Origin: Pristiophorus japonicus
Lineage: Eukaryota
Length of the DNA stretch: 64,000 nt
Direction of reading: 5' to 3'
Assembly: GCF_044704955.1 (NCBI RefSeq)
Contig: NC_091999.1
Span: forward strand, 19,592,001-19,656,000
Shown here: positions 7,677-62,340 of the stretch, piece after piece
How the letters are laid out: every line of letters starts with the position of its first letter
Numbering within the stretch: position 1 is the first letter of the stretch
Position numbers and translations under genes: made by a program
The notes under the pieces: generated by a model
Told to the model about the DNA's origin: nothing
The model's database searches: none
The model's input: the letters and a program-made list of their open reading frames with translations, nothing else

Positions 7677-7976
7677 CGACACCTTCTGCACCAATACTCT
7701 ACGGCCTGCTCTCCTCCTGTGAACAACCCAACATCGACTGCCCATTCACCTACGGGTGTTTGGCAATGGATTACTCCCCGGAAATCACCAGCCTTTCTTG
7801 GAGGAAAGATAAAGAGCAAATCACCACTGGATTGAAGACCTACCCGTGACTGCTCAATAAGAAGGGAGCCTACAGCCTGAGCAGCCAGTTAACCATCACC
7901 GAGTCAGAGATGGGGAGCAGCACAATCAACTGCGAGGTTCGACGAAATGGGTCAGTCTGGAACTTCAAAATACCAG
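7677..7976 (+). pseudogene. IGHM: IgM heavy chain CH1 exon with premature stop
   Basis: Acceptor tctttcccag|, phase 1. Translates [99 protein letters not shown], matching shark Cmu1 as I recall it ([49 protein letters not shown]). In-frame TGA at 7847-7849; no clean GT donor at the expected end. Confidence 0.93.
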
Positions 7977-9844: not shown

Positions 9845-10156
9845 ATCGTGTGGTACATCATCCAAGTGTTTTCCTTACCCTGATTTCATTTGAAGAAATC
9901 TCCAGAAGCAGATCTGCAACAGTCGTGTGTTCACTCATCGATTTCCGTCCAAGGGAAGTGACAGTGAATTGGCTGAGAAATGGACAAGTCATGGATTCGG
10001 ACATCGTCACCTCTCCTGTCTTTGAAGTTAACAGGAACTTCTCAATGACCAGTCGGCTAATAGTTCCCGCCGAAGAATGGTTCGCACGCTTGGTCTATAC
10101 CTCCCACTTTTCTCATCAAGGGTTCACCCAAAGCCGAAACATTACCAGGTCTCACG
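9845..10156 (+). pseudogene. IGHM: IgM heavy chain CH2 exon (open frame, second Ig cysteine lost)
   Basis: Acceptor ttttcttgcag|, donor |gtaaga. [58 protein letters not shown]...[33 protein letters not shown] matches shark Cmu2; YTC has become YTS. Confidence 0.93.
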
Positions 10157-10544
10157 GTAAGAGATACAATCCCGTGAATTTCCAGATCATTCTGAGCGCG
10201 GATCTCAGTTAGTGCTTTTCGAGGAATTATTAAAAAGCACAGAATTATTTCTCATTTCCAATCATACAGTTTTTGCTTCCTTTCAGTGTAAGTCCTGACT
10301 GTGGATACTTCATGGTTCATGACTCCATCACTTCACCAAAGGTTGCCCTTTGCTCTGATGCCAGACTGTGGGCGAGGTTCCCTTAGTTTCAGCTTAATCC
10401 TGCGTTGCCTGATCATATCCAAAGCGACAGTAGGTGCCTGCAATCCATTGGTGGTAACTTTCTCAGGGCCCACTGCTAGAAAGGGCATCTGCCCTATTTA
10501 GAATACTGTGTTCAGTTCTGGGCACTGCACCTCAGGATCGAGTG

Positions 10545-14080: not shown

Positions 14081-14204
14081 ATATCCGCCAGTGACCTTCA
14101 AACCTTCACTCCATGTTTCCCTAAACTTTCACTCCACATATTATACTGATAGAGATATTGATAACATAAAGAGACAGTTAGATAGACAAATGTCGTTTCA
14201 AATC

Positions 14205-18810: not shown

Positions 18811-19354
18811 NNNNNNNNNNNNNNNNNNNNNNNNNNNNNNNNNNNNNNNNNNNNNNNNNNNNNNNNNNNNNNNNNNNNNNNNNNNNNNNNNNNNNNNNNN
18901 NNNNNNNNNNNNNNNNNNNNNNNNNNNNNNNNNNNNNNNNNNNNNNNNNNNNNNNNNNNNNNNNNNNNNNNNNNNNNNNNNNNNNNNNNNNNNNNNNNNN
19001 NNNNNNNNNNNNNNNNNNNNNNNNNNNNNNNNNNNNNNNNNNNNNNNNNNNNNNNNNNNNNNNNNNNNNNNNNNNNNNNNNNNNNNNNNNNNNNNNNNNN
19101 NNNNNNNNNNNNNNNNNNNNNNNNNNNNNNNNNNNNNNNNNNNNNNNNNNNNNNNNNNNNNNNNNNNNNNNNNNNNNNNNNNNNNNNNNNNNNNNNNNNN
19201 NNNNNNNNNNNNNNNNNNNNNNNNNNNNNNNNNNNNNNNNNNNNNNNNNNNNNNNNNNNNNNNNNNNNNNNNNNNNNNNNNNNNNNNNNNNNNNNNNNNN
19301 NNNNNNNNNNNNNNNNNNNNNNNNNNNNNNNNNNNNNNNNNNNNNNNNNNNNNN
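18811..19354. other. Assembly gap (544 N)
   Basis: Run of N. Confidence 1.
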
Positions 19355-19643
19355 ATTATAGGCTATCAAGAGACATATTCTCATTGATTATAAATGCAGC
19401 CAGCCTAAATTGACCATGGTTAATTGATAGTGCCTTCCATTAAGTTCTCCGCGATTTGCAATCAATTGCTCCCAGGTGGCCTCGTCTTCATCATACCCTT
19501 ATCGCAACTCCGTGTTTGGAAGTAGTAAGTACGACTTTGCTTTGTAACCGAGAGTCTGGACGATGTGGGGAGGGTGTGGGGACATTGGGCCACACGCCAG
19601 TGAAGTGTTACACCCAACAACAACGTGGTCTCCACCGAAAGCT

Positions 19644-20296
19644 TTAGGACCTGAAAATGTAGAGCAGCGGATTAAGGGCATTGCTGAGGGCAGCGAGGGC
19701 CCAAGTATACACCCGAATACTACAAACGTACCACGTTGCGATTTCCCCTGAGGGAATCAGCAGGTTCCTCAACAAAAAAGAGAGTCCAATGATGTGAAGT
19801 GGGACAAAGCAGAAAAGCAGGAGAGCCATTATCGCCCAAATGATCCATCAGCTCCATGAATTCCTTCCCAGCTCCCACTTCTATCTGATTCTTTGCGGTC
19901 AGAGCATAGCAGATCAAAAGGAGCAGGTCTGGGATGCAGAATGTGAACTCGCAGCACAGCGTTAGCACTGGGTTCCATTCCCAGAGTGAAACCAGAGCCT
20001 TACCTATAAGTGGGCCAGTAAACACGTCTTTTGTCCCCAAAACAATCCTGCGCTCAGGGATAGCATGGTTAGCCAAGTTACAATTGACAGGCAAACGTAA
20101 TATGTTGGCCGTCTCCATGCATGAGACCTGATGGGGTGGAGAGCAGCAATATATTGGTCATGAAGGATGGATTGCCGTAAAGGTTGATTAGACTCAGGAT
20201 AAAACTGATATCATTGAATAACCCCACTGAGATAGAATAATCGATATATTCAATAAAGGAATCTGCAGAAGTCAGGATATCCAAGAAATTGATCAT
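19644..20296 (-). pseudogene. Rhodopsin-class (P2Y/LPAR6-like) GPCR pseudogene, TM2-TM7
   Basis: Joined across frameshifts on the minus strand: ISFILSLINLYG (TM3), DQYIAALHPIRSHAWRRP (DRY region, 20151-20159), FCIPDLLLLICYALTAK (TM5), IMALLLFCFVPLHII (TM6), ALAALSNALNPLLYIF (TM7). The 5' end abuts a CR1 insertion. Confidence 0.8.
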
Positions 20297-27144: not shown

Positions 27145-27190
27145 ATGTGCATCCCGCGTTCCTTACTCTTAATAATGGTCGTGCTGCCCG
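27145..27190 (+). CDS. TRAV/TRDV: TCR Valpha/delta leader exon
   Basis: Kozak-like CACCATG; MCIPRSLLLIMVVLP(G); 46 nt, phase-1 donor |gtgagt; 80-bp intron. Confidence 0.88.
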
Positions 27191-27270
27191 GTGAGTCTAT
27201 TTAAATGCTCAGTGTGTGTTCATGGGCTATATTTATTCCCAGATATTTTAAACACGTTTTTTTGTTACAG

Positions 27271-27577
27271 GAACGAGTGGCAAAAAATCAGTGTTCCTGG
27301 ATCCATCTGAACTAAAGGTTAAGGAAGAACAGACCATAATACTGAACTGCAGTTCCTCCACATCCGATAGATTTCTGTACCTCTTCTGGTACATCCAGTA
27401 CCCCGAGGAAGCTCCGAGATATTTACTGAGGAGATACAGCAAGGAACTGGGAGATCAGTCTCCTGATTTCCCAAACCGGTTCTCTGATGATTCGGCTCAA
27501 AGCATGAAAACGGTGGTTTTAAATGTGTCCGGGACTCCTGTCTCTGATTCTGCCGTGCATCAGTGTGCGCTGCGCTC
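27271..27577 (+). CDS. TRAV/TRDV: TCR Valpha/delta V exon, open frame (germline gene segment)
   Basis: Acceptor tttgttacag|, in frame with the leader: GTSGKKSVFLDPSELKVKEEQTIILNCSSSTSDRFLYLFWYIQYPEEAPRYLL...RFS...DSAVHQCALR. Both Cys and the Trp are present; YLFWY.QYP and CALR are TRAV/TRDV-like. Confidence 0.9.
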
Positions 27578-27616
27578 CACATTATTACAGGGGACCAGTC
27601 AATCCGTACAAAAACC
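27578..27616 (+). promoter_or_regulatory. 23-bp-spacer recombination signal sequence
   Basis: Heptamer CACATTA (27578-27584), exactly 23 nt, perfect nonamer ACAAAAACC (27608-27616). Confidence 0.92.
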
Positions 27617-28807
27617 AGCAAAATGCTCTCACTCATTCTCATTGAATCAGATCTGTGAACTGGATTGTGAACTGATAATGGAATAAAAAACATAGTATGA
27701 AATCTAGTTTGGCCAAATGACAAATTTATTTGCTGTAACTTCTGTGAAATTCTATGTAATATTTTCTTGATATCAGCTGGTTCTAATGGTTCGTGAGCTG
27801 TTCTTTTAGTGGAAGCCTCTGGCACTGATACCAGAACAACATTAACTACTTCCCTTCACTGTGCCACCCACACATACTGATCCTATTATTGGGCCAACAT
27901 TTGTATTAATCCCTATGCATTTTGCTGTTGTGAAAACAATTTCACTCCTTTCCTTGTTCCCCGCTCCGATGTAATGAATTGGAGAACAAAGGATCCGTGA
28001 GCTGATTGGAAGAATTGCAGAAAAAAGGGCAGTGAGCTGATTGAATTGGTGAATAATGGAACTGTGAACTGATTGGATGAATTGGAGAACAAAAAACCCG
28101 TGAACTAGTTGGATGTCACTTGCTGACTCCGACTAGAAAGAACCATTCGACAGAGAGGCATCCTTCCCAATCCTGACCAAAACAATACAGGTTCAAACCG
28201 TTCTGTTAAAATGTGCCTACAACTCTCTGCAAATATGTTCATTGCGATTTTGTATTTGTTCGTCACAGCTGCAGCTCTATTAACAGGTAGGTTCGCAAGT
28301 TACATAACACCGTGTTGCACATCTATACCATACATTTAATCTGTCAATGCCATGAGCACAGGAAGATCAACAGATTGACCTGAAATAAAGAAACCCTTCT
28401 GGATCCACCTTGACTCAACACTGAGCGCAGTTTGGGGAAACTCGACAAACTCCCCTAGTGAATGAAAAAGGATGGTCTGAGATGCGATTCAAGCGAATGG
28501 CAGAGAAACCCGCCCCACCCCGCCGGGGCAATGGTGGACTTTGATAGACACAGGTGTCTTAAAGCCTCGTCACAAGACGTGACGGTCAGGAATTGATCCC
28601 GTTGGAAGGTGCTCATAGTTAATTAAATTAACTTTTAATCAGTCGGTCCAACGCATTCCCTTTGCAGCTGAGAGGAAATTCTGTTTAATTTCTGAATAAC
28701 CGCCCAGAGTTACATCTCAGGCAAGTGTTAGGGGTGACGGGCTGATTCTGGGCGATAGACACAGTGAAGTGACATTGTTTAATTTAGTATCGCTCTGGGC
28801 TCTTCCG

Positions 28808-29153
28808 GGGCATGGTCGAGAGACTCCGTTTAACAGACACTGGCTGTAAGCAAATCAAGTAAAGGAAACGATGTTCATTTGCACAATGATTATACAACTA
28901 CAAGCTTGGGTACGGTTTACCAATTCCGGTACCGCCAGTATTGCAATTGTTCTTTGGAATATCTGCTGCATAGAAACAGATACAGAGAGAACGGAGTGAG
29001 ATTTAAAGCGGACCGTTTTTCAGCGAAGTTCAATGATTCGAGTGGAACCAGCCCGCTGAATGCGTCTGAAACACAACTGCGAGACTCTGTGAAGTATTAC
29101 AATGCATTGAGTCCCACAGAGGTACGGAGCTTGGCTGGAATGGTACAAGAACG
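28808..29153 (+). pseudogene. TRAV/TRDV: TCR Valpha/delta pseudogene with 23-RSS (copy 1)
   Basis: SRDSV*QTLAV...DVHLHNDYTTT...YQFRYRQY...LEYLL...DRFSAKF...LRDSVKYYNALS; stop at 28831; both Cys and the Trp lost; no AG acceptor. RSS is CACAGAG (29115-29121) + 23 nt + ACAAGAACG (29145-29153). Confidence 0.85.
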
Positions 29154-29334
29154 GTCATAGCATCGCTCAACATTCCAGCACTTTAGTGGAGCATTGTGAT
29201 CAGAGGCGAGGTTGAGCTAGTTCCTGTATATATGATCAGACCTTGTACTGTTAATTCTAATATATATTCACTTTCATGAATAATAACCATATAATCAACT
29301 GCCATAATGCAGTTAAATTAGAAAAGAAAAAAAA

Positions 29335-29782
29335 GTATTGATACCGCGGCTTTCACGACATCCTGAAGTGGTTAACAGACAATGAAGTACTTTTGGAATG
29401 TAGTCACATTGTAATGTCGGGAACGCAGCAGCGAATTTTTGAACAGCAAAATCTCACAAACAGCAATGTGATAATGACCAGATAGTCTGCTTTAGTAAGT
29501 TTGTTTGAGTGGTAAATGGTGACCAGGATAACAGGAGAATTCCCCTGTTGTTTTTCAAAATATCGGGGTCCATTATATCCTCCATAGTTGTCAAACAATT
29601 CCTCGGTTGAACAGCACATCCGAAAGCCGATACCTCCGACGTTACACTACTCCCTCACTACTAACATTGGCAGGGTCCGCCTATATTTTGTGCTCAAGTG
29701 CATTCTTCTGTATGTGAAGAATTGAACGCACAATATATTGACTCAAAGGCGAGAGTTCTACCACCTGAGGCATGGCTGACAC
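29335..29782 (-). mobile_element. tRNA-headed SINE (DeuSINE/SacSINE-like); second copy at ~35629-36076
   Basis: Minus strand starts GTGTCAGCCATGCCTCAGGTGGTAGAACTCTCGCC (tRNA-like head); the body resembles the Deu-domain SINEs I recall from sharks. Confidence 0.55.
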
Positions 29783-29964
29783 CGAGTACTTGTTGTTTAG
29801 ACGTTGTTCTGTTCATTCTAATGCACATGTACCTTTATTACTAATAAATGTACAATATTTATATACAATTGCAGCTGGATGCGCATAATGCCTATATAAA
29901 GGTAACCAGGCTAATGACTGACAGACAGATGTAGAGTGGCCTGTCTGAGCCTCCGTCACTAGTG

Positions 29965-32900
29965 TATCGTAGTTCTATCTGATCTGTCCATTATCCTCTA
30001 TGTACAGCAGATCTTTCTGATCGGTACAATTCCTTCTATGTACAATAGTTCTATCTGATCTGACAATTCCACTCCGTTGCAGTAGGTCAATCTACTTTTT
30101 CCATTTCTCTCTGAGCACCGTAGTTCTATCTCATCTGTGCATTCACTTCTTTGCACAGTAGTTCTGTCTGACCTGTACATTCCACTTTGAGTCCAGTAGT
30201 TCTATCAGACGTGTTAATTCCCCTCTGTTCAGTAATTCTATCTGACCTGTCCAGTCCCTTCTGTGTACACTAGTTCAATCTGACCAGTTCATTCCCCTTT
30301 GTGTTCAGTAGTTCTATACGGTCTGTCCATTCCCCTCTTGGTACAATAGTTCTGTTTGATCTTTCCATTGACCTCTGTCTATAGTAGTTCTCTTAGACCT
30401 GCCCATTCCCGTCTGTGTACAATTTTCAATCTGATCTGCCCATTCCACTCTGTATACAGCATTTCTATCTGAGCTCTCCATTCCCCTCTGCGTGCAGTAA
30501 TTCTATCTAATCTGAACATTCCCCTCTATGTACACCAGTTCTATTGGATCTGTCGATTCCTCTCTGTGTACATTAGTTGTATCTGGTCTGTCCATTCAAC
30601 TCTGTGTACAATAGATCTATCTGACCTGTTCATTGACCTTTGTTTAGTAGTCTATATGATATGTAGATTGCCCCCCTCCCCATTCTACATTTGTTCTATC
30701 TGATCTGTCCATTACCCTCTGTGTACCGTATTTCTATCTGATCTTTCGAAGCCCCTCCTCCCTATGTGTAGCAGCTCTATCTGATCTTTCCATTCCCCTC
30801 TGGGTACAGTAGTTCTTTTTGATCTGTCCATTCCGCTCCCCTCTGCGTGCAGTTGTTCTACCTGTTCAGTCCATTCTTCTCTATCAACAGTAGTTCTATC
30901 TGATCTGTCCATTCCCCTCTGTGTGCAGTAATTCTATCTGATCTGTGCAATGCGTACAGTAGTTCTATCTGATCTGCCCATTCAGCTCTGTGTATAGTAG
31001 TTCTATCTAACCTGTCCATTCCACTCTGTTTACAGTAGTTCTATCTGACCTGTCCATTCCCCACTGTGTGTAGTACTTCTATCTGAGCTGCCCATTACCC
31101 TCTGAGTATAGCATTTCTACCTAACCTGTCCATTCCCTTCTGTGTGTAGTACTTCTATCTGAGCTGCTCATTCCCCTCTGCGTATAGCATTTGTAACTGA
31201 TCTGTCCATTCCCCTCTGTGTGTAGTACTTCTATCTGAGCTGCCCATTCCCCTCTGTGTATAACATTTCTACCTGATCTGTCCATTCTCCTCTGTGTACA
31301 ATAGTTCTACCTGACATGTCCATTCCCCTCTATGTACATTAAATCTATCTGATTTGTGCAATGCGTACAGTAGTTCTATCTGATCTGTCCATTCAGCTCT
31401 GTGTGCAATAGTTATATCTGACGTGTCCATTCCAATCTGCTTACAGTGGTCTATCTGATCTGCCCATTCAGGCCTGTGTGTAGTAGTTCTATCTTATCTG
31501 ATCATTTACCTCTGTGTTCACAGTTCTATCTGAATTGTCGAATCCCTTATGAGTACAGTAGATCTGTCAGATCTGCCCATTCCTTTCTGTGTGCAGTAGT
31601 TCTATCTGCTCTCTCTGTTCACGTCCCCTATCTGTGCAGTGGTTCTCTCTGATCTATCGATTCCCTCCACCCCCCTTCCTCTATGTACATGAATTCTACC
31701 TGAACTCTCTATTCAAATCTGTGTGCAGTAGTTCTATCTGATCTGTCCATTCCCCTCCCGTCTGTGTGCAGTCGTTCTACCTGATCTGCCCATTCACCTC
31801 CGTGTATAGTAGTCCTAGTGTATCTATCCATTACTCACTGAGTGCACTAGTTCTATCTAATCTGAGCATTCCCCTTTGTGTACAGTAGTACTATTTGATA
31901 TGTGCATCCCTCTCTGTGTACAGTAATGCTATTGATCACTCCATTCCCCTTTGTGTACAGTAGTTTTATCTGACCTGTTCGTTCCCCTTTATTTAGTAGA
32001 TTTATCTGATCTGCCCATTTCCCTCTATGTGCAGTAGTTATCTAGTCGTGGATCCCCGACCTGCGAGAGAACAGCTCCGCAGGTTGGGCTATAGCAGAGC
32101 TGGAACGGCGGGCTTGGAACATCGTGGCCTCCGAACAGCGAGAGAACAGCTCCGCAGGTCACGCTATAAAATAGCTGGATTGGCGGGCCTGGGACATCGT
32201 GGTCCCCCGACCTGCGGGAAAACAGCTCCGCAGGTCGCACTATAAAAGAGCTGGAGCGTACCACTTCAGCCTCCAGCACGAGCTACTCTAAGTGTGCGCT
32301 GATTTTGAGATGGGCGACTCCGTTTTAGAGCATAGGCATGAACATCGGCAGGGCCCAGTTACAGAGGAGTGGGAAGGTCGGAGCGGATGAGCGGCGAGAG
32401 ATCGTGGCAGAGGTGCGACAGATGAGGGTACGGATCCCAGAAGAGCCAATGGCCCAGGAGCAGCACGGACCAGCCAACACTGCAATATGTGTGTGCACTC
32501 GGTCCATGCAGCAGAGCAGGTCTCCAGTCGTCTTGGTTAATCCTTGCCACTAGACCAAGACCGAGCTCTGTCAAGCCCGTGTGGTGGCTGGTGTGCAACG
32601 GTCACCACACGTTAAAAGAAATTCGCGTCGAGTCATCTTCAACCACCTCAATTGGAGTTCACTACTGGAACATCGTGTCCTTCATCGAAACACCTGTGAA
32701 CTTGTGGGAGAAAGTCATCCTTGTTCGAGGTACCGCCTATGATGATAATGAATAGTTATATGTGATCTATACATTCTCCTGTATGTACAGTAGTTCTATC
32801 TGATCTATATATATATATCTATGTATAGTTCTATCTGATCTGACCATTGCCTTCTGTGTGCAGTAGGTGTATTTGATCTGTCCATTCCACTCTTTGTACA

Positions 32901-33912
32901 GTAATTGTATAAGACCAACCCATTCCTCTCTATGTTCAGTATTTGTATCTAATCTGCCCTTTCCCCTCTGTGTGCAGTAGTTCTACCTGAACGGTCCCCT
33001 CTCTTCTATGTACAGTAGTTCTAATTCATCTGTTCTATTTGATCTGTCCATTCCCCTCTGTGTATCGAAGTCCTAACTGATCTCTGCATTCCCGTCTGTG
33101 TACAGTAGTTCTGTGTACAGCCTCTCTATATGATCTGTCAATTCTCCTCTGTGTGCATTCGTTCTATTTTGTCTATCTGTTCACGTCCACTCTGTGTGCA
33201 GTGATGCTATCTGATTTGTCCATTGAACTATGTTTTCTGTCGTTCTATCCAATCTCTCCATTCCCCTCCCATCTGTGTGCAGTCTTTCTAACTGATCTGT
33301 CCATCCACCTTCGTGTACATTAGTTATTTTTGATATCTCCATTCCCCTCCCCTCTGTGTGAAGTAGTTCTATCTATTCTGAACATTCCCCTCCGTGTGCA
33401 GTAATTGTATCTGATCTGCCTATTCCCCTTTATATGCAGTAGTTCTATCTGATCTCTCCAATCCCTACGGTGTGCAATAGTTCTATCTGATCTGGCCGTT
33501 CCCCTCCCCTACGTGTGCAGTAGTTCTATCTGATCTGTCCATTTCCCTCTGTGTACAGGAATTCATTCTGGTCTGTCCATTCCCATCTGTGTGCGTTATT
33601 TATATCTGGTCTGTCCATTCCCCTCCGTGTGCAGTGGTTCTTTCTGATCTGTCCATTCCCCTCTCTGTAAAGGAGGTCAGACTGGTCTGTCCATTTTCAT
33701 CTGTGTGCGTTAATTCTATCTGGGCTGTTCATTTCCCTCCCCTCTTGTGCAGTAGTTCTATCTGATCTGAGCCTTCCCACGGTGTACAATGGTTCTATCT
33801 GACCTGTCCATTCGTCTGTGTCTAGTCGATCTATCTTATCTGTCCATTCCCCTTTGTCTACAGTAGTTTATCTGATCAGTCCAGTCTCCTCTTTGTAGAG
33901 TAATTCTATCCC
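29965..33912. repeat. ~38-bp degenerate minisatellite array (TAGTTCTATCTGATCTGTCCATTCCCCTCTGTGTACAG)
   Basis: Dozens of diverged units, interrupted at 32043-32751. Confidence 0.93.
32043..32751 (+). mobile_element. Non-autonomous RTE-related SINE-like element inserted in the minisatellite
   Basis: Ends AAGTCATCCTTGTTCGAGGTACCGCCTATGATGATAATG, similar to the RTE 3' tail; shared core ...TTAATCCTTGCCAC...TGTCAAGCCCGTGTGGTGGCTGG... Confidence 0.8.
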
Positions 33913-35101
33913 CAAAATGCTCTCACTCATTCTCATTGAATCAGATCTGTGAACTGGATTGTGAACTGATAATGGAATAAAAAACATAGTATGAAATCTA
34001 GTTTGGCCAAATGACAAATTTATTTGCTGTAACTTCTGTTAAATTCTATGTAATATTTTCTTGATATCAGCTGGTTCTAATGGTTCGTGAGCTGTTCTTT
34101 TAGTGGAAGCCTCTGGCACTGATACCAGAACAACATTAACTACTTCCCTTCACTGTGCCACCCACGCATACTGATCCTATTATTGGGCCAACATTTGTAT
34201 TAATCCCTATGCATTTTGCTGTTGTGAAAACAATTTCACTCCTTTCCTTGTTCCCCGCTCCGATGTAATGAATTGGAGAACAAAGGATCCGTGAGCTGAT
34301 TGGAAGAATTGCAGAAAAAAGGGCAGTGAGCTGATTGAATTGGTGAATAATGGAACTGTGAACTGATTGGATGAATTGGAGAACAAAAAACCCGTGAACT
34401 AGTTGGATGTCACTTGCTGACTCCGACTAGAAAGAACCATTCGACAGAGAGGCATCCTTCCCAATCCTGACCAAAACAATACAGGTTCAAACCGTTCTGT
34501 TAAAATGTGCCTACAACTCTCTGCAAATATGTTCATTGCGATTTTGTATTTGTTCGTCACAGCTGCAGCTCTATTAACAGGTAGGTTCGCAAGTTACATA
34601 ACACCGTGTTGCACATCTATACCATACATTTAATCTGTCAATGCCATGAGCACAGGAAGATCAACAGATTGACCTGAAATAAAGAAACCCTTCTGGATCC
34701 ACCTTGACTCAACACTGAGCGCAGTTTGGGGAAACTCGACAAACTCCCCTAGTGAATGAAAAAGGATGGTCTGAGATGCGATTCAAGCGAATGGCAGAGA
34801 AACCCGCCCCACCCCGCCGGGGCAATGGTGGACTTTGATAGACACAGGTGTCTTAAAGCCTCGTCACAAGACGTGACGGTCAGGAATTGATCCCGTTGGA
34901 AGGTGCTCATAGTTAATTAAATTAACTTTTAATCAGTCGGTCCAACGCATTCCCTTTGCAGCTGAGAGGAAATTCTGTTTAATTTCTGAATAACCGCCCA
35001 GAGTTACATCTCAGGCAAGTGTTAGGGGTGACGGGCTGATTCTGGGCGATAGACACAGTGAAGTGACATTGTTTAATTTAGTATCGCTCTGGGCTCTTCC
35101 G

Positions 35102-35447
35102 GGGCATGGTCGAGAGACTCCGTTTAACAGACACTGGCTGTAAGCAAATCAAGTAAAGGAAACGATGTTCATTTGCACAATGATTATACAACTACAAGCT
35201 TGGGTACGGTTTACCAATTCCGGTACCGCCAGTATTGCAATTGTTCTTTGGAATATCTGCTGCATAGAAACAGATACAGAGAGAACGGAGTGAGATTTAA
35301 AGCGGACCGTTTTTCAGCGAAGTTCAATGATTCGAGTGGAACCAGCCCGCTGAATGCGGCTGAAACACAACTGCGAGACTCTGTGAAGTATTACAATGCA
35401 TTGAGTCCCACAGAGGTACGGAGCTTGGCTGGAATGGTACAAGAACG
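35102..35447 (+). pseudogene. TRAV/TRDV: TCR Valpha/delta pseudogene with 23-RSS (copy 2)
   Basis: Duplicate of 28808-29153 with one S>A difference; heptamer CACAGAG at 35409. Confidence 0.85.
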
Positions 35448-36258
35448 GTCATAGCATCGCTCAACATTCCAGCACTTTAGTGGAGCATTGTGATCAGAGG
35501 CGAGGTTGAGCTAGTTCCTGTATATATGATCAGACCTTGTACTGTTAATTCTAATATATATTCACTTTCATGAATAATAACCATATAATCAACTGCCATA
35601 ATGCAGTTAAATTAGAAAAGAAAAAAAAGTATTGATACCGCGGCTTTCACGACATCCTGAAGTGGTTAACAGACAATGAAGTACTTTTGGAATGTAGTCA
35701 CATTGTAATGTCGGGAACGCAGCAGCGAATTTTTGAACAGCAAAATCTCACAAACAGCAATGTGATAATGACCAGATAGTCTGCTTTAGTAAGTTTGTTT
35801 GAGTGGTAAATGGTGACCAGGATAACAGGAGAATTCCCCTGTTGTTTTTCAAAATATCGGGGTCCATTATATCCTCCATAGTTGTCAAACAATTCCTCGG
35901 TTGAACAGCACATCCGAAAGCCGATACCTCCGACGTTACACTACTCCCTCACTACTAACATTGGCAGGGTCCGCCTATATTTTGTGCTCAAGTGCATTCT
36001 TCTGTATGTGAAGAATTGAACGCACAATATATTGACTCAAAGGCGAGAGTTCTACCACCTGAGGCATGGCTGACACCGAGTACTTGTTGTTTAGACGTTG
36101 TTCTGTTCATTCTAATGCACATGTACCTTTATTAATAATAAATGTACAATATTTATATACAATTGCAGCTGGATGCGCATAATGCCTATATAAAGGTAAC
36201 CAGGCTAATGACTGACAGACAGATGTAGAGTGGCCTGTCTGAGCCTCCGTCACTAGTG

Positions 36259-39200
36259 TATCGTAGTTCTATCTGATCTGTCCATTATCCTCTATGTACA
36301 GCAGATCTTTCTGATCGGTACAATTCCTTCTATGTACAATAGTTCTATCTGATCTGACAATTCCACTCCGTTGCAGTAGGTCAATCTACTTTTTCCATTT
36401 CTCTCTGAGCACCGTAGTTCTATCTCATCTGTGCATTCACTTCTTTGCACAGTAGTTCTGTCTGACCTGTACATTCCACTTTGAGTCCAGTAGTTCTATC
36501 AGACGTGTTAATTCCCCTCTGTTCAGTAATTCTATCTGACCTGTCCAGTCCCTTCTGTGTACACTAGTTCAATCTGACCAGTTCATTCCCCTTTGTGTTC
36601 AGTAGTTCTATACGGTCTGTCCATTCCCCTCTTGGTACAATAGTTCTGTTTGATCTTTCCATTGACCTCTGTCTATAGTAGTTCTCTTAGACCTGCCCAT
36701 TCCCGTCTGTGTACAATTTTCAATCTGATCTGCCCATTCCACTCTGTATACAGCATTTCTATCTGAGCTCTCCATTCCCCTCTGCGTGCAGTAATTCTAT
36801 CTAATCTGAACATTCCCCTCTATGTACACCAGTTCTATTGGATCTGTCGATTCCTCTCTGTGTACATTAGTTGTATCTGGTCTGTCCATTCAACTCTGTG
36901 TACAATAGATCTATCTGACCTGTTCATTGACCTTTGTTTAGTAGTCTATATGATATGTAGATTGCCCCCCTCCCCATTCTACATTTGTTCTATCTGATCT
37001 GTCCATTACCCTCTGTGTACCGTATTTCTATCTGATCTGTCGAAGCCCCTCCTCCCTATGTGTAGCAGCTCTATCTGATCTTTCCATTCCCCTCTGGGTA
37101 CAGTAGTTCTTTTTGATCTGTCCATTCCGCTCCCCTCTGCGTGCAGTTGTTCTACCTGTTCAGTCCATTCTTCTCTATCAACAGTAGTTCTATCTGATCT
37201 GTCCATTCCCCTCTGTGTGCAGTAATTCTATCTGATCTGTGCAATGCGTACAGTAGTTCTATCTGATCTGCCCATTCAGCTCTGTGTATAGTAGTTCTAT
37301 CTAACCTGTCCATTCCACTCTGTTTACAGTAGTTCTATCTGACCTGTCCATTCCCCACTGTGTGTAGTACTTCTATCTGAGCTGCCCATTACCCTCTGAG
37401 TATAGCATTTCTACCTAACCTGTCCATTCCCTTCTGTGTGTAGTACTTCTATCTGAGCTGCTCATTCCCCTCTGCGTATAGCATTTGTAACTGATCTGTC
37501 CATTCCCCTCTGTGTGTAGTACTTCTATCTGAGCTGCCCATTCCCCTCTGTGTATAACATTTCTACCTGATCTGTCCATTCTCCTCTGTGTACAATAGTT
37601 CTACCTGACATGTCCATTCCCCTCTATGTACATTAAATCTATCTGATTTGTGCAATGCGTACAGTAGTTCTATCTGATCTGTCCATTCAGCTCTGTGTGC
37701 AATAGTTATATCTGACGTGTCCATTCCAATCTGCTTACAGTGGTCTATCTGATCTGCCCATTCAGGCCTGTGTGTAGTAGTTCTATCTTATCTGATCATT
37801 TACCTCTGTGTTCACAGTTCTATCTGAATTGTCGAATCCCTTATGAGTACAGTAGATCTGTCAGATCTGCCCATTCCTTTCTGTGTGCAGTAGTTCTATC
37901 TGCTCTCTCTGTTCACGTCCCCTATCTGTGCAGTGGTTCTCTCTGATCTATCGATTCCCTCCACCCCCCTTCCTCTATGTACATGAATTCTACCTGAACT
38001 CTCTATTCAAATCTGTGTGCAGTAGTTCTATCTGATCTGTCCATTCCCCTCCCGTCTGTGTGCAGTCGTTCTACCTGATCTGCCCATTCACCTCCGTGTA
38101 TAGTAGTCCTAGTGTATCTATCCATTACTCACTGAGTGCACTAGTTCTATCTAATCTGAGCATTCCCCTTTGTGTACAGTAGTTCTATTTGATATGTGCA
38201 TCCCTCTCTGTGTACAGTAATGCTATTGATCACTCCATTCCCCTTTGTGTACAGTAGTTTTATCTGACCTGTTCGTTCCCCTTTATTTAGTAGATTTATC
38301 TGATCTGCCCATTTCCCTCTATGTGCAGTAGTTATCTAGTCGTGGATCCCCGACCTGCGAGAGAACAGCTCCGCAGGTTGGGCTATAGCAGAGCTGGAAC
38401 GGCGGGCTTGGAACATCGTGGCCTCCGAACAGCGAGAGAACAGCTCCGCAGGTCACGCTATAAAATAGCTGGATTGGCGGGCCTGGGACATCGTGGTCCC
38501 CCGACCTGCGGGAAAACAGCTCCGCAGGTCGCACTATAAAAGAGCTGGAGCGTACCACTTCAACCTCCAGCACGAGCTACTCTAAGTGTGCGCTGATTTT
38601 GAGATGGGCGACTCCGTTTTAGAGCATAGGCATGAACATCGGCAGGGCCCAGTTACAGAGGAGTGGGAAGGTCGGAGCGGATGAGCGGCGAGAGATCGTG
38701 GCAGAGGTGCGACAGATGAGGGTACGGATCCCAGAAGAGCCAATGGCCCAGGAGCAGCACGGACCAGCCAACACTGCAATATGTGTGTGCACTCGGTCCA
38801 TGCAGCAGAGCAGGTCTCCAGTCGTCTTGGTTAATCCTTGCCACTAGACCAAGACCGAGCTCTGTCAAGCCCGTGTGGTGGCTGGTGTGCAACGGTCACC
38901 ACACGTTAAAAGAAATTCGCGTCGAGTCATCTTCAACCACCTCAATTGGAGTTCAGTACTGGAACATCGGGTCCTTCATCGAAACACCTGTGAACTTGTG
39001 GGAGAAAGTCATCCTTGTTCGAGGTACAGCCTATGATGATAATGAATAGGTATATGTGATCTATACATTCTCCTGTATGTACAGTAGTTCTATCTGATCT
39101 ATATATATATATATATCTATGTATAGTTCTATCTGATCTGACCATTGCCTTCTGTGTGCAGTAGGTGTATTTGATCTGTCCATTCCACTCTTTGTACAGT

Positions 39201-40588
39201 AATTGTATAAGACCAACCCATTCCTCTCTATGTTCAGTATTTGTATCTAATCTGCCCTTTCCCCTCTGTGTGCAGTAGTTCTACCTGTACGGTCCCCTCC
39301 CTTCTATGTACAGTAGTTCTAATTCATCTGTTCTATTTGATCTGTCCATTCCCCTCTGTGTATCGAAGTCCTAACTGATCTCTGCATTCCCGTCTGTGTA
39401 CAGTAGTTCTGTGTACAGCCTCTCTATATGATCTGTCAATTCTCCTCTGTGTGCATTCGTTCTATTTTGTCTATCTGTTCACGTCCACTCTGTGTGCAGT
39501 GATGCTATCTGATTTGTCCATTGAACTATGTTTTCTGTCGTTCTATCCAATCTCTCCATTCCCCTCCCATCTGTGTGCAGTCTTTCTAACTGATCTGTCC
39601 ATCCACCTTCGTGTGCAGTAGTTATTTTTGATATCTCCATTCCCCTCCCCTCTGTGTGAAGTAGTTCTATCTATTCTGAGCATTCCCCTCCGTGTGCAGT
39701 AATTGTATCTGATCTGCCTATTCCCCTTTATATGCAGTAGTTCTATCTGATCTCTCCAATCCCTACGGTGTGCAATAGTTCTATCTGATCTGGCCGTTCC
39801 CCTCCCCTACGTGTGCAGTAGTTCTATCTGATCTGTCCATTTCCCTCTGTGTACAGGAATTCATTCTGGTCTGTCCATTCCCATCTGTGTGCGTTATTTA
39901 TATCTGGTCTGTCCATTCCCCTCCGTGTGCAGTGGTTCTTTCTGATCTGTCCATTCCCCTCTCTGTAAAGGAGGTCAGACTGGTCTGTCCATTTTCATCT
40001 GTGTGCGTTAATTCTATCTGGGCTGTTCATTTCCCTCCCCTCTTGTGCAGTAGTTCTATCTGATCTGAGCCTTCCCACTGTGTACAATGGTTCTATCTGA
40101 CCTGTCCATTCGTCTGTGTCTAGTTGATCTATCTTATCTGTCCATTCCCCTTTGTCTACAGTAGTTTATCTGATCAGTCCAGTCTCCTCTTTGTAGAGTA
40201 ATTCTATCCGATCTGTCCATTCACTTCTATGTGAAGTAACTCTATCTGATCTGTCCATTCCCGTCTCTGTACATTAGTTCAATCTGATCTATCCATTCCC
40301 CTCTGTTACAGTAGTTCTATCTGATCTGTCCATGCCCCTACGTGCACAATATTTCTATCTGATCTGTCCATGCCCCTCCCCTCTGTATAAAGTAGTTCCA
40401 TCTGATCTCTCCATTCACCTCTGTGTATCGTCGTTCTACCTGATCTTTCTATCCCCTCCCTGTTTGCAGTAATTATATCTGATCCCTCCATTCCATCTGT
40501 GGGCAGTAGTTCTATATGATCTATGCATTCCACTCCCCTCTACGTACAATACATTCCATCTGATCTGTTCATTCCCCTCTATGTGCAT
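36259..40588. repeat. ~38-bp minisatellite array (second copy, extending past the duplication end)
   Basis: Same unit as 29965-33912. Confidence 0.93.
38337..39045 (+). mobile_element. RTE-related SINE-like element (duplicate copy)
   Basis: Duplicate of 32043-32751. Confidence 0.8.
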
Positions 40589-40589
40589 G

Positions 40590-41152
40590 ACGCTCCCAAT
40601 CTCACAGTCTCCCGCCCTGCTGTCTCCAAACCATGACCAAACCCCAACCACCAATCTCACAGTCTCACTCCCCGCTGTGTCCACACCATGACCAAACCCC
40701 CACCCACCAATCTCACAGTCTCTCGCCCCACTGTCCCCACACCATGACCACACCCACCACCCAATCTCACAGTCTCCATCCCCGTTGTTACCACACCATG
40801 ACAACCCCACCCACCAAATCTCACAGTCTCCCGTCTGCTGTCCCCACGCCATGACCAGCCCCCCACCCAATCTCACAGTCTCTCCCTCGCTGTCCCCAAA
40901 GCATGACCACCCCCCGTACCCAATCTCACCGTCTCCCGCCCGCTGTCCCCACACCATGACCTCCTCCAATCTCACAGTCTCCTGCCCCGTTGTCCCCACA
41001 CGATGACCACCCTGCCACCCAATCGCACAGACTCCCGCCCCGCTCACCCCACACCATGACCCCCCACAATCTCACAGTTTCCCGCCCCGCTGTCCCCACA
41101 CCATGACCACCTGACCCCCCTCCCCACCCAATCGCACAGTCTCTTGCCCCAC
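40590..41152. repeat. C-rich ~55-60-bp minisatellite (CCAATCTCACAGTCTCCCGCCCCGCTGTCCCCACACCATGACC...)
   Basis: About 10 units. Confidence 0.9.
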
Positions 41153-41156
41153 TGTG

Positions 41157-42145
41157 TTCGTTCTGTCCGGTTTTATCGGTTCTGGTTAATAATTACAACT
41201 GCTGTTTGGATTAGTTTTATCCGCTTACATCATTATGATTTTCGATAGCGGCGCCATTATATTGGATATTCAGGCGGAGCAGACCCTGCACACTCCAGTG
41301 TACCTGTTAATCTGTATTGGCAACGGTTGTTATATGTTACATCACAGTCAGTGTACGGAATACATTAGCGACCATAGTGTTACATCACAGTTAGTGTACG
41401 GAATATATAAGCGAACATAACGTTACCAGCAAAAAACATTTCGTATGGAAGCTGCATGAATCAAATGTTCTTCGTCCACAATCATCTGGAAGGTGACTTT
41501 ATAATATTATCAACATCGGTCATGATCGATATGTTTTTCTGTGCAACCCACTGCGATATTCAACCATGATCGCAACATCAAGTCTGATAAAGACCCACCT
41601 CGTTCTCTGAGCGATAAATTACTCCGTCGTCTTAGTCTACCTTGGCCTCAGCCTGCGGCTGCCCTTTTCCGGCTCTGAGGTCATTTAGATTATAGTCTGC
41701 ACCTACATGTCCGTTGCCAAGTTTTCCTTCGGAGACATCTCAAGGAATAGCATGTTCTAGACGTGTGAGATGATCACTGTCTACTTTTCTGTTATAGTTT
41801 CATTACCTTCCGTTATTGTAAGATCGGCTTTGCTATTTTCAAGATTAATTCACAGGCTGTGCGGCAGAAGGCGATCCAGACTTGTGCCTCCCACCTGTCT
41901 ATTTTCTGTATATATGTTGCGTCTATTTGTCTCATTATTCTATCTTACAGAATTAAATCCATGCCGCCAATACCCACATTGTGATGATGGCTGTGACGGC
42001 ATTAACTGCACCGCTCTCAGATCGCGTCACTTACTGTTGGAGAACAAAGCAGGTCGAGTGGTGGTCGGGGCATGCTTCAAGGGCACGCAGAAAACTCGAG
42101 TTGGAAACACAACCAGAGTTTCTGTCATTACCTAATATCAGTTAG
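41157..42145 (+). pseudogene. Olfactory receptor (OR family) pseudogene
   Basis: OR signature motifs in correct order across frameshifts: FVLSGF (41157), LHTPVY (41286), ISYGSCMNQMFFVH, HDRYVFLCNPLRYSTMI (41521), LRLPF..CTYMSVAKFSFGD, RQKAIQTCASHL (~41862-41897), APLSDRVTYCWRTKQV. Several stops, and a 43-bp internal duplication (41335-41377 / 41378-41420). Confidence 0.9.
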
Positions 42146-56310: not shown

Positions 56311-57437
56311 CGGATGTCGTTCCATTGTGTTGTTGATATTGGCAGTGTCTGGCTCAGTTCTACAAATTGTTCATTAATTTCGATTATTCGCCAATGAAAT
56401 TTAATTAATTAATTTATTGAAAATACATTATTAGGTGGTGAATTGTTGACATAAATATAAGCAGTGCAATATATGGCCGTTTTATGCATGAATCTATATT
56501 TGCCAAAAACTCACACAGAAGCGTTACTGCTCTCCAACTCTGACTCTCACTGGTTCAGCCTGGCACTTCTCTTCCACATTCGCTGCTGCTGCGAGTTCTA
56601 CAGCGACCGCTGCTGTGACTGGGAGTGCCTTCTGGTCATGACACCTGGCAATGTCCCGGATTGTCCTCGACTTCAAACTTTTCTAGACATGGACTGACGC
56701 CGCATAACTGGTTACATCTCTGATATCTGAGTCACAAAATTTATCGTTCAATATACACTCTCGGACTAAGCCAATCATTTATCCTGACAGCGTAGTACAG
56801 AACAAGTATTGCATTGATGGAGGGGCCTTTTACTTAATGAGTCCTCATCACCTGCCAGTTCCAATGGGCCAGATCGACACCGACGATCCAAGGTGATCAT
56901 CAGCAGCAGAGTTCGGAGTTTGCACCTCGCTGTTTGGGAATATATTTGTGCAAGTTGACTGCTGAATTTTCCAATAGTGAATCATTTTACAGTAATTAAT
57001 CATATTAGAGTGTTTACGGTCAGCAGCAGTACACAATCCATTTTAATGCATTCTTCCTATTTTCTTGTTACTTCTTCTGAATAACCTCTCAAATATCTTC
57101 TGTAAGCGCTACTGAGATGTTATTTTTGTTATCAATCTGATGACCCCATGTTGGTTTCCAGGTTTCCCGATATGTTACTTTTCTCCGTTATCATTCTTTA
57201 CATTATTTTACATTCCGATGTCATTGGCTTGTCAAATGTTTTATCCGGAAGATTAATAAATTACGTAGTCAAAGTTTTAAATTTCACACAGAATCCTGCC
57301 AAATGGATGATTTTGCCTATAGTCGGACCAGTAATATTACTGTTCTCGCTCAATCACACATATTCACTGGCTCTGTCCCTTTCTCACACATATTCACTCG
57401 CTTCCTCTCTGTCTCACACATTCTCTCTCTGTTACAG

Positions 57438-58348
57438 CTAACGTGGCAGTCATTGTGATCCTGCCTCGAGGAAGGTGTGGTCTCTCCAGATGTATCACTC
57501 GGTACCTGGTGGCCATGGCCGTAATGGATCTGCTGGTCATTTTCACCGCTGTGATATTAAACCGGATTGTAGGTATTTATTTCCCATTTAGTTTCTTGTC
57601 CATCACTCCGATCTGTCGTTTCCATGTTGCCCTAATCTATGCAGCCATAGACTGTTCTGTCTGGTTAACGGTCGCTTTCACCTTTGATCGATTTGTGGCC
57701 ATTTGTTGCCAGAAGGAGAAAGCACAATATTGCACCGAGAAAACCGTGGCAGTGGTTATTAGCACGGTCTGTTCAATGAGCTGCTTAAAGAATACCTTCT
57801 TGTATTTTATATATGAACCTTTGTACACAGTTAACAACATACCCTGGTTCTGCAGCATTAGAAAAACATTTTATACATCACCAGCATGGGTAGCATATGA
57901 CTGGATGTTCCACATTTTAACCCCATGTCTCCCATTCATTCTGATTTTACTGCTCAATGCATTGACCATCAAGTACATTCTAGCGGCCAGTAGAGCCCGT
58001 AGGAGACTCCGTGCCAACAGCAATGGAGAGAATCCACACGATCCAGAGATGCAGAAGCGAAGAAATTCCATCGTTTTACTCTTCTGTATCTCGGGCAGTT
58101 TCATCATGTTAAATGTTTTATTACTTAGAACTTTCATCTCTGTCCAGATTGGGAGCGTTAGTTATTTCTCAGGTTCCACTGTCAATGAATCAAATATTAT
58201 CCTGGAGGAATATGGATATATGCTTCATCTTTTGAGTTCCTGCATCAACCCGTTTATTTATGCAGGGACCCAGAGTAAATTCAGAGAGGAGTTAAAGAAT
58301 GGGATGAAATATCCACTGAGTCTCATTGTTAAATTATTTCAATTCTAA
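57438..58348 (+). CDS. GPR139/142-like class A GPCR, coding exon 2 (326 aa with exon 1, intact)
   Basis: Acceptor ctgttacag|; hydrophobic TM segments with YLVAMAVMDLL, WLTVAFTFDRFVAIC, TPCLPFILILLLNALT and SSCINPFIY; no stops. The RGRCGLS.CITRYLVAMA pattern is what I recall for elasmobranch 'GPR139-like' genes, so true GPR139 orthology is not claimed. Confidence 0.9.
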
Positions 58349-58699: not shown

Positions 58700-61600
58700 G
58701 GCGGCATTGTCTGCACACAATGTTCCACTTTCTCTGGGCAATGGGAGCCTGCACTGCTCCCACACATTGTTCACGCTCAATGGGCAATGGGTGGCCGCAC
58801 TGTCGCCACACATTGTTCACATACACTGGGCAATGGGTGCCGGGACTGTCCCCAAACATTGTCACATTCACTGGGTAATGGGAGCCCGCACTGTCCCCAA
58901 ACATTGTTCACATTCACTGGGCAATGGGAGCCCGCACTGTCACCAAACATTGTTTCCACTCAATGGGCAATTGGGAGGCCGCACTGTCCCCACACATTGT
59001 TCACACACACTGGGCAATGGGAGCCCGCACTGTCCCCAAACATTGTTCACATTCACTGGGCAATGCGAGCCCGCACTGTCCCTATACATTTTCCCCCCTC
59101 ACTGGCCAATGGGAGCACGAACTATCCCCACACATTGGTCCCACTCACTGGGCAACGGGAGCCCGCACTGTCACCACACATTGTTCCTACTCACTGGGCA
59201 ATAGGAGCCCACACTGTCCCCACACATTGTTCCCACTCGTTGGGCAAAGACCGCACAGTCTCCACACATTCTTCCCACTAATTGGGCAATGGGAGCCCGC
59301 TCTGTCCCCAAACATTGTTCCCCATTCACTGCGCAATGGGAGCACGCACTGTCATAGAAACATAGAACATAGTTGCAGGAGCAGGCCATTCCGCCCTTCG
59401 ATTCCATACCGCCATTCAATATGGTCATGGCTGATTAGGCAACTTCAGTACACCAACTCCCGACTTCTCTCCATACCCCCTGATCCCCTTAGATGTGACG
59501 GCGACATCTAACTCCCTCTTGAATATATCCAACGAACTGGAATAGCAACTTTCTGTTCTAGAGAATTCCACAGGTTCTCCACTCTCTGTGTGAAAAAGTG
59601 TCTCCTCATCTCTGTCCCATATGGCTTACCCCTAATCCTTAGCCTTTGACCCCTGGTTCTAGTGTTCCCCAACATCGGGAACATTCTTCCTGCATCTAAC
59701 CTGTCCAGTCCCGTCATAATTTTATGTTTCTATGAGATCCTCTCTCATTCTTCTAAATTCCTGTGTGTATAAGCCTAACCGATCCATTCTTTCTTCATAT
59801 GTCAGTGCTGCCAACCCGGGAATTAGTCTGGTGAACCTTCGCTGCACTCCCTCAATAGGAAGCACGTCCTTCCTCAGATTGAGAGACCAAAACTGCACAT
59901 AATACTCAAGGTGTGGTCTCATTAAGGCCGTGTACAGTTGCAGTAAGAACTCTCTGCTCCTATACTGAAATCCTCTCATTATGAAGGTCAACACGCCATT
60001 TGCTTTCTTTGCAGCCTGCTGTAACTGCATGCCTACCTTCACTGATTGCTGTGCCAAGACACCAAGGTCTCTTTCCACTTCCCCTTTTCCTAATCTGTCA
60101 CCATTCAGATAATAATCTGCCTTCCTGTTTTTGCCCACCAAAGTGGATAACCTCACATTTATCCACATTCTATTGCATCTGCCGTGCAGATGCCCATTCA
60201 GCTAACCTGTCCAAGTCACTCTGCAGCCTCTGAGCATCATTCTCACAGCTCACACTTCCACCCAGTTTGGTATCATCTGCAAACTTGGAGATATTAGATT
60301 CAATTCCTTCGTCTAATCATTAAGGTATATTTTAAATAGCTTGGGCCCCAGCACATTGCGACACCTCACTTGTCACTGCCTGCCATTCTGAAAATGAACC
60401 GTTTATTCCAACTCTTTGCTTCCTGTCTGCCAGCCAGTCAATACATTACTCCCAATCCCATGTGCCTTAATTTTGTACACTAATCTCTTGTGTGGGACCT
60501 TGTCAAAAGCCTTTTGATAGTCCAAATACAACACATCCACTGGTTCTCCCTTATCCACTCCACTAGTTACATCCTCAAAAAAAGCTAGAAGATTTGTCAA
60601 GCATGATTTCCTTTAGTAAATCCATGCTGACTTGGCCCGATCCCATCACTACTTTCCAAATGCGCTGCTTTACATCTTTAGTAATTGATTCCAGCATTTT
60701 CCCCGCTATCAATGTCAGGCCAACTGTTCTATAATTCCCTGTTTCCTCTCTCCCTCTTTTTTTTAAAAGTGCAATTACACGAGCTACCCTCAAATCCATA
60801 GGTCGTGATCCAGAGTCCATGGAATTGTGGAAAATAACTAAAAATGCATCTACTATTTCTAGCACCACTTCCTCAAGTACTCTGGGATGCAGACTATCAG
60901 GCCCTGGGGATTTATCGGCCTTCAGTCCCATCAGCTTCCCTGACACAATTTCCTGACAAATAAGGATTTCCCTCAGTTCCTCCTTCCCGCATGACCCTCG
61001 GTCCGTCGTACTTTCGAGAGGTTATAGTTGACTTCCTTAGTGACTGCAAGGGACCTACATTAGTCTTCATTAATCATTTTCTCTTCACATACCTATACAA
61101 GCTTATGCAGTCTGTTTTTATGTTCGCTGCATGTTTACTCTAATAATCTACTTTCCCCTTGCTAATTGAACCCTTAGTCCTCCGCTGCTGAATTCTACAT
61201 TTTTCCCAGTCTCAGGTTTGCTGCTTTTTCTGGCCAAAGTATCTGCCTCTTTCTTTGATTTCATACTATCCCTAATTTCCCTTGTTAGCCACGGTTGAGC
61301 TACCTTTCCTGTTTTGTTTTTATGCCAGACAGGGATGTACAATAGTTGTAATTCATCCATGTGATTTTTTCCTCACGCTTTGTTGCCACTAACTGGGGAA
61401 TCACCGTAATCTCCCCACACATTGTTCCCAATCACTGGGCAATGGGAGCCCGCACTATACCCACACACTGTTCACACTCACTGGGCAATGGGAGGCCGCA
61501 CTTCCTCCACACATTGTTCACAATCACTGGGCAATGGGAGCCCGCACTTTCTCCACATATTGTTCCCAATTACAGGGCAATGTGTGCCCGCACTGCCCCC

Positions 61601-62340
61601 ACACGTTATTCCCAATCACTCGGCAATGGGAGCCTGCACTCTCCCTACACATTGTCCACAATCACTGGGCAATGGGAACACGCACTATCCGCACACATTG
61701 TTCCCAATCACTGGGCAATGGGAGCCCGCACTGCCCCCACACATTGTTCCCAATCACTGGGCAATGCGAGCACGCACTATCCCCACAAATTGTTTCCAGT
61801 CATCTGGGCAATGGGAGCCCGTCCTGTCCTCAAACACAGTTCATACTCACTGGGCAATGACCGCACTGTCCCCACACATTGTTCGCCACTCATTGAGCAA
61901 TAGAAGCTCGCACTGTCCCCACACATTGTTCCACACTCACTGGACAATGGAGGCCCATAATTTCCATACACATTGCTCCCCACTCACTGTATGAATGCAG
62001 ACCGCCCAATCTCCACACGATCTTTTCTTTATCTGGGCAATGGGAGCCCGCACTGTCCCCTCACATTGTTCACACTCACTGGGCAATGGGAGCCTGCACT
62101 GTCCCCTCACATTGTTCACACTCACTGTGCAATGGGAGCCCGCACTATCCCCACACTTTGTTCCCCACTCACTGGGCAATAGGAGCCTGCACTGTCTGCT
62201 GACAATGTTCAAACTCACTGGGCAATTGGAGCCCGCACTATCCCCTCACATTGTTCCCCACTCACTGGGCAATGGTAGTTCGCACTGTCTCCACACATTG
62301 TTCCACACTCAGTGGGTAATGACCATACTGTCCCTACACA
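58700..62340. repeat. ~46-bp minisatellite (CACTGGGCAATGGGAGCCCGCACTGTCCCCACACATTGTTCACACT) split by a CR1
   Basis: Arrays at 58700-59352 and ~61385-62340. Confidence 0.92.
59353..61378 (-). mobile_element. CR1 LINE (ORF2 3' half and 3' UTR)
   Basis: CATAGAAACATAGAACATAG tail; YLDYQKAFDKVPH, RPHLEYYVQFWS and DKSPGPDSLHPRVL. Confidence 0.92.

Follow-up and report, generated by a model that had tools for sequence, protein, structure and literature searches.

A full-length, single-exon olfactory receptor (OR) pseudogene, apparently of type 1, is located at 41103..42145 on the forward strand of the 64-kb stretch of Pristiophorus japonicus DNA analyzed here (the window), as identified by Pfam, PDB and tblastn matches and by alignment. 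It is rather likely that this locus is a long-dead OR that is a passenger of the antigen-receptor complex and whose lineage is missing from the shark ORs compared.

Identity and decay of the OR pseudogene

The OR frame extends from an ATG at 41103 to a terminal stop at 42143-42145. The earlier note had placed the locus between 41157 and 42145; its 3' limit is retained, while the 5' limit moves to the ATG at 41103. The six OR motifs listed there were all found in the same order, spread over three forward frames, and the fragmentation of the open reading frames by frameshifts is confirmed by five frame breaks and seven internal stops. The proposed comparison with the Pfam family 7tm_4 (curated cut-off of 27 bits) gave matches above the cut-off for two read-throughs, 41521-41826 (36.1 bits) and the frame 41133-42002 (30.2 bits), and no other Pfam family matched the OR read-throughs. 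Stop-free pieces taken singly each gave weak 7tm_4 matches. In the PDB comparison, ORs made up the best 13 of 16 matches, with OR52c at the top (E 5e-9), followed by TAAR1 (E 0.2-0.4). The presence of 7tm_4 as the only family and the rank of ORs ahead of TAAR1 rule out a non-OR G protein-coupled receptor (GPCR), one of the outcomes that the earlier note had named as fatal to its reading.

The best tblastn segment reached 48.9 bits with the real DNA versus a maximum of 23.9 bits in 100 codon shuffles used as a control. The read-through, with X at the breaks, is colinear with fish ORs over about 310 residues (10-319) at about 31% identity, with several motifs decayed. All matches and motifs are of type 1 (groups alpha to zeta, type 2 comprising eta, theta, kappa and lambda), as judged with trees that lack type 2 sequences and a by-eye comparison with shark type 2 genes. 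The locus is an OR pseudogene, as first noticed from the letters alone.

Internal stops occur at 41112, 41187, 41190, 41408, 41608, 41686 and 41758, and the frame is broken near 41316, at 41335-41377 (a 43-bp duplication), 41511-41517, 41788-41796 and 41970-41974. Short-read contigs from runs X1 and X3 agree with the window, without gaps and with 0-1 differences, at 41335-41483, 41522-41758, 41729-41900 and 41902-42056; both runs derive from one sample, possibly the source of the window itself, and so provide no biologically independent evidence. The lesions are thus genuinely in the DNA, since gap-free contigs reproduce them. A functional OR has an intact frame and seven transmembrane segments; with seven stops and five frame breaks, on which the reads agree, this locus makes no receptor. 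No RNA data set was listed as containing the sequence, a result without bearing on expression.

The same runs contain further OR copies, represented by unphased contigs of lower depth that are 92-95% identical to the window. One divergent contig, with 21 differences over 254 bases and no gaps, covers the 41316 break and the 43-bp duplication; carrying both lesions, it indicates that they are older than the copying. Single-base insertions in reads at 41511 and 41796 correspond to the frame offsets at those two breaks, and variant letters at 41187 and 41759 abolish two stops, so that these lesions are younger. Some other copy contigs bear deletions of their own. Synonymous changes account for 9 of the 33 coding differences among those listed, compared with 27.5% expected (unphased data; 40 differences are listed out of 64 rows, and the 33 used are coding positions outside the satellite-covered stretch), which suggests a neutral pattern of divergence. 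The gene died before it was copied, an order shown from the shared lesions for at least one further copy.

Two parts of the OR coding sequence are linked to minisatellites. Immediately upstream of the gene, an array on the forward strand (40587..41102) comprises 10 units of 46-56 bp that are copies of the OR start region, each with an ATG and the codons of an N-x-T sequon, and an eleventh unit continues into the OR frame. Matches to the start unit number 11, all within 40596-41143, with 0.05 expected by chance; this 5' array is an expansion of the OR start region. At the second site, codons of TM2 (CYITVSV...) are tandemly duplicated at 41335..41420 (forward strand, 43-bp unit). Read depth over the TM2 unit is 520-830 versus 15-40 in the flanking bins, with loop-back joints present, from which we infer that this unit has grown into an array in another copy of the OR. 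This TM2 satellite is apparently derived from OR coding sequence, so that a single gene would offer two sites where coding sequence became minisatellite. A related TM2 unit of 42-43 bp is found elsewhere in the genome at about 40-fold depth in reads X1 and X3.

Neighbouring V segments and the antigen-receptor setting

The V segment nearest to the OR is a TCR alpha/delta-type V pseudogene with a 23-spacer recombination signal sequence (RSS) at 35107..35447 on the forward strand. It carries a stop in FR1 and has lost Cys23, Trp41 and Cys104. The V pseudogene ends at 35408 and its RSS occupies 35409-35447, leaving 5,695 bp to the OR start, in agreement with the gapless distance of about 5.7 kb given previously: the sole N run of the window is at 18811-19354, and no N gap occurs between 19355 and 64000. 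Tandem arrays fill 4,141 of the 5,656 bases (73%) between the RSS and the OR. Large minisatellite arrays with 38-bp and 46-bp units are located at 29962-33910, 36256-40588, 58714-59353 and 61412-62321.

The nearest V pseudogene is the second copy within a 6.3-kb tandem duplication at 27619..40209 on the forward strand (27619-33911 and 33913-40209; 99.65% identical, 22 differing positions), the first copy being at 28813..29153 (forward strand). The duplication may be recent or may represent an uncollapsed haplotype. The two pseudogenes share the RSS and the CAL(R/S) end motif, and their V-domain matches are weak (best E 2e-4, for the first copy) and mixed between Ig light chain and TCR alpha/delta; in Pfam the second copy falls below reporting. 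Just upstream, at 27145..27616 on the forward strand, is a TCR alpha/delta-type V segment (V-set E 3.5e-11; leader exon 27145-27190) with an open spliced frame, both cysteines, Trp41 and a 23-spacer RSS with a perfect nonamer. Its V-set domain, leader intron, RSS after the CAL(R/S) end and lack of an IgH/IgL octamer are the features of a TCR alpha/delta V segment. The motifs by which the V segments were typed are those we take to be diagnostic of TCR alpha/delta. In this segment HQC replaces YYC, and the heptamer is CACATTA. Judging by its sequence, it could possibly still be rearrangeable. The proposed neighbourhood of an OR and TCR alpha/delta-type V segments is thus borne out by V segments lying upstream in the same window.

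Two immunoglobulin heavy chain (IgH) exons are located farther upstream on the forward strand: a CH1-like exon with an in-frame stop (7691..7909) and a constant exon of the C1-set without the second cysteine (9856..10170, ends approximate; E 2e-12). Together they form an IgH pseudo-cluster, which by shark motifs we take to be of the IgM type. No more IgH constant exons were recognised in 10150-14700. In elasmobranchs, IgH clusters are interleaved with TCR alpha/delta V segments in an antigen-receptor complex, whose V segments extend over 8.2-17.1 Mb of white shark chromosome 27 (PMC12227049). The window, with its IgH exons and three V segments, matches this complex, in which TCR alpha/delta V segments and pseudogenes likewise lie between IgH clusters or pseudo-clusters; the main text and Table S1 of PMC12227049, however, name no OR, and the window has one. 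The setting, by its gene content, resembles the elasmobranch complex rather than a compact, mammal-like TRAV end. Since the complex spans megabases of scattered V segments, an OR close to a V segment is unremarkable.

Two more rhodopsin-family GPCR sequences share the window. One is a decayed P2Y/GPR17-like receptor on the reverse strand (19630-20170), with best PDB matches to GPR17 (E 4e-8) and LPAR5 (E 3e-5). Human LPAR5 is located at 12p13 near CD4 and LAG3; if the sequence proved LPAR5-like, it would be relevant to the ancestral 9/12/14 chromosome of MHC paralogs that has been proposed. The other is an open single-exon 7tm_1 frame on the forward strand (57335-58348, E 1e-18), with 46-bp arrays just downstream of it. 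It presumably resembles the GPR139-like receptors, which we take to be expanded in cartilaginous fishes. Otherwise, the Pfam scan of 223 window frames (220 of the 253 frames listed, LINE-region frames being omitted, plus three read-throughs) revealed LINE remains and chance matches. None of the markers SALL2, METTL3, DAD1 or ABHD4 was found among these frames in the 64-kb window.

Phylogenetic affinities and known shark ORs

References for the placement of the pseudogene came from 18 HMMER matches, 120 listed matches of a scaffolded search and 27 metagenome-contig loci; they span the groups alpha (two full-length sequences), delta (five) and gamma, with beta, epsilon, zeta and type 2 missing. 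Group labels of the gar gamma ORs follow a published list, and the remaining references were assigned by motif. The 18 HMMER matches, obtained with the TM5-TM6 piece, comprise 17 OR-like sequences and one repetitive chance match, all with identities of at most 48%. Among the 120 matches listed in the scaffolded search, which is biased to its lungfish scaffold, most are fish gamma ORs and none is named as chondrichthyan. Two protein searches with window frames, word-based and weak at such divergence, returned 175 and 440 candidates without significant relatives.

The best full-length BLAST matches belong to group gamma and come from sturgeon, bichir and gar (155, 151 and 144 bits), followed by an alpha OR (140 bits). 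These gamma ORs, all from fishes outside the teleosts (gar GAMMA-27/28 on LG3; sturgeon and bichir P0023-P0025) are 30-32% identical to the pseudogene over 299-313 columns and have the LHTPxYLLI, LRLPF, TCASH, SYRI and YCxxTK motifs and loop lengths in common with it; unlike the pseudogene, they are intact and located within an OR cluster. In a 45-row tree the pseudogene forms a long branch outside gamma at an open fork, and in a 20-row maximum-likelihood tree it branches as the sister of the entire gamma group (support 74/55). AU tests, with groups picked after the first tree, gave p 0.022 for grouping with tetrapod gamma, 0.067 with the fish gamma clade, 0.32 with alpha (two ORs) and 0.30 with delta. 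Nesting with the gar-sturgeon-bichir trio is mildly rejected (p 0.026), and the short branches of these ORs may raise their BLAST score. A gamma assignment on BLAST alone was dropped after these tests. Single pieces of the pseudogene conflict in the PDB comparison; a first reading as class I, taken from the TM3-ECL2 piece, was not upheld by the other pieces and the trees. Zebrafish epsilon ORs have the PVY, QMFFVH and YCxRT motifs in common with the pseudogene, TCSPQL being absent from the shared set; the epsilon group is apparently reported as lost in cartilaginous fishes (PMC10869828, where the Greek letter is dropped in the text). The OR phylogeny that the earlier note had called for puts the sequence in no supported group, alpha and delta not being rejected. 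The pseudogene appears to be a deeply branching type 1 OR whose sister relation to gamma (class II) is weak.

Known chondrichthyan ORs are few: 6-13 per species, with two OR pseudogenes in 11 genomes (Syed et al., 2023; PMC10116579). Two canonical ORs are reported in catshark (PMC11979771). The catshark receptor Sc-OR1 is of class I, and Sc-OR2 is a class II ortholog (PMC6368271). The chondrichthyan type 1 ORs belong to the same family as the pseudogene, have a single exon like it and presumably come from the same vertebrate class; the pseudogene is, in contrast, far more decayed and multi-copy, and bears no by-eye resemblance to the entries compared. Its TM2, TM6 and TM7 motifs were not seen by eye in the complete ORs of elephant shark and epaulette shark in PMC10116579, nor was any likeness found by eye to the beginnings of 10 incomplete shark OR entries in the same source. 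Two class I genes of epaulette shark and an OR2-like 3' half, among the entries compared by eye, differ at the TM2, TM6 and TM7 motifs. Of six DNA words, five were absent from the PMC10116579 supplement and the sixth hit an unrelated truncated gene, a comparison limited by line wraps and decay. Distinctness from shark ORs rests on two of about 11 supplement parts compared by eye and these six short words. One incomplete whale shark entry has a motif that by eye we would take for a mammalian OR4-type receptor, possibly contamination. This entry, the last incomplete one in file S2 of PMC10116579, comes from a tiny contig and lies at the contig edge. Within the scope of the entries compared, it is reasonably supported by motif comparison that the pseudogene represents a lineage absent from the intact shark ORs, that is, a lost shark OR lineage. 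The suggestion that shark OR history includes lost copies missed by counts of intact genes is supported by its dissimilarity to the intact ORs compared from that source.

Origin of the OR next to V segments

In tetrapods, synteny between ORs and the TRA/TRD locus is reported from frog to mammals (PMC3457774), and human OR10G2 and OR4E2 lie among TRAV segments (PMC4574546), although the flanks of TRA/TRD differ in axolotl (PMC12529555). ORs at the TRAV end (human OR10G2 and OR4E2; frog, bird, platypus, sheep) are within kilobases of TCR alpha/delta V segments, as here. Unlike them, the OR of the window is dead, the V segments are scattered in an IgH-interleaved complex and no conserved flanking marker is present in the window. 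The earlier note had proposed that the linkage dates to the jawed-vertebrate ancestor and that synteny should be sought in other sharks.

CM029991 was equated with white shark NC_054493 on the ground that two accession pairs show the same offset, and for catshark we assume that the number LR744046 and the scaffold prefix correspond to the complex. The complex is on NC_054493 in white shark and on NC_052162 plus an unplaced scaffold in catshark (Table S1 of PMC12227049). In the OR entries of PMC10116579, obtained by tblastn at E<1e-10, none of the 6 complete and 4 incomplete white shark ORs is on NC_054493 or its GenBank twin CM029991, and none of 9 catshark ORs is on LR744046 (chr17). Because 3 of 156 OR queries reach E<1e-10 on the pseudogene at genome scale, an equally preserved ortholog would be detectable, narrowly, by that survey, and the notion that standard pipelines must miss such a pseudogene is weakened. 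Absence in these two sharks is nevertheless soft, as incomplete assembly of the antigen-receptor region is reported for sharks (PMC10751288, section 12). An ortholog from a shark should branch deeper than every gamma OR of bony vertebrates, so the lack of nesting in tetrapod gamma is no refutation of ancestral linkage. Given the complex setting and the chromosomes of the two sharks, linkage from the jawed-vertebrate ancestor is so far unsupported. No literature report of an OR located within the TCR alpha/delta region of a shark was found, most subscription papers being outside the scope, and the present one is probably unreported.

Our preferred explanation, held with some reserve, is that an old type 1 OR gene with one exon, whose lineage is absent from the intact shark ORs compared, died long ago and has drifted neutrally inside the elasmobranch antigen-receptor complex, whose duplication and slippage would have copied it after death and expanded two of its pieces into minisatellites. 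Its closeness to V segments would reflect a region that gathers and reshuffles small gene cassettes, other GPCRs included, rather than a conserved or functional OR-TRAV pairing. Such a passenger origin is consistent with a real OR bearing real lesions, death before copying, neutral differences, the complex-like setting with two further GPCRs, the lack of ORs on the complex chromosome of white shark and catshark in the entries of PMC10116579, and the lack of a close homolog in the protein searches or among the shark entries compared. It is weakened by the soft absence in two sharks, by the limited by-eye and DNA-word comparison and by extra copies that are unphased contigs of unplaced location. 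Also against it, the gamma-sister position and the gamma BLAST matches point to the class that flanks mammalian TRAV, as would fit a relic preserved in place. In that alternative, which we regard as possible but doubtful, the ancestor of jawed vertebrates carried a class II (gamma) pro-ortholog next to TRA/TRD; the pseudogene would be descended from it, as would the ORs that flank TRAV in tetrapods today. The great age and long death of the gene, an ECL3/TM7 length that matches fish gamma without a gap and the synteny from frog to mammals (PMC3457774, PMC4574546) agree with it, whereas the placement is not significant, SALL2, METTL3 and DAD1 are absent from the 223 frames of the window, and the entries of PMC10116579 place no white shark or catshark OR on the chromosome that bears the complex, though a few queries reach the survey threshold. 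Moreover, the class II ortholog Sc-OR2 exists in catshark (PMC6368271), where no listed OR is on chr17. It is correspondingly unlikely that a class II-related lineage of the ancestral antigen-receptor region gave rise to the tetrapod TRA/TRD OR clusters and, its working gene having been lost in cartilaginous fishes, survives there as no more than this pseudogene.

It is rather improbable that the pseudogene is a paralog of one of the known shark ORs (class I OR1/beta-like, or OR2) that has decayed or arisen by translocation or retro-copying, its distinctness being only apparent through decay and incomplete comparison. The best genome-scale tblastn match is a class I OR (E 1e-16), the TM3-ECL2 piece favours OR52/OR51 consensus receptors, and zebrafish beta ORs, a group missing from the trees, have LSYRI and WRTK motifs. 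On the other hand, ECL3 has one residue fewer than its counterpart in alpha and beta ORs, and the epaulette shark comparison by eye and the DNA words, as given above, speak against such a relation. We consider it very improbable that the adjacency of the OR and the V segment arose by local mis-assembly within the repeat arrays, even though the spacer is mostly tandem repeat, the 99.65% identical duplication ends 0.9 kb upstream of the OR and several near-identical OR copies exist: the sequence from 19355 to 64000 has no N gap, and the 5' array, being made of the OR's own start region, ties the OR to its upstream flank.

Taken alone, the pseudogene has no functional consequence. It does provide a concrete probe for whether OR-TRA/TRD linkage is older than bony vertebrates; if ancestral linkage were true, the association of ORs with TCR alpha/delta genes would go back roughly as far as rearranging antigen receptors themselves, and the canonical OR lineages of sharks would once have outnumbered what counts of intact genes suggest. 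Canonical ORs are scarce in cartilaginous fishes; another dead type 1 lineage would raise the ancestral count and help to establish when sharks lost OR-based smell.
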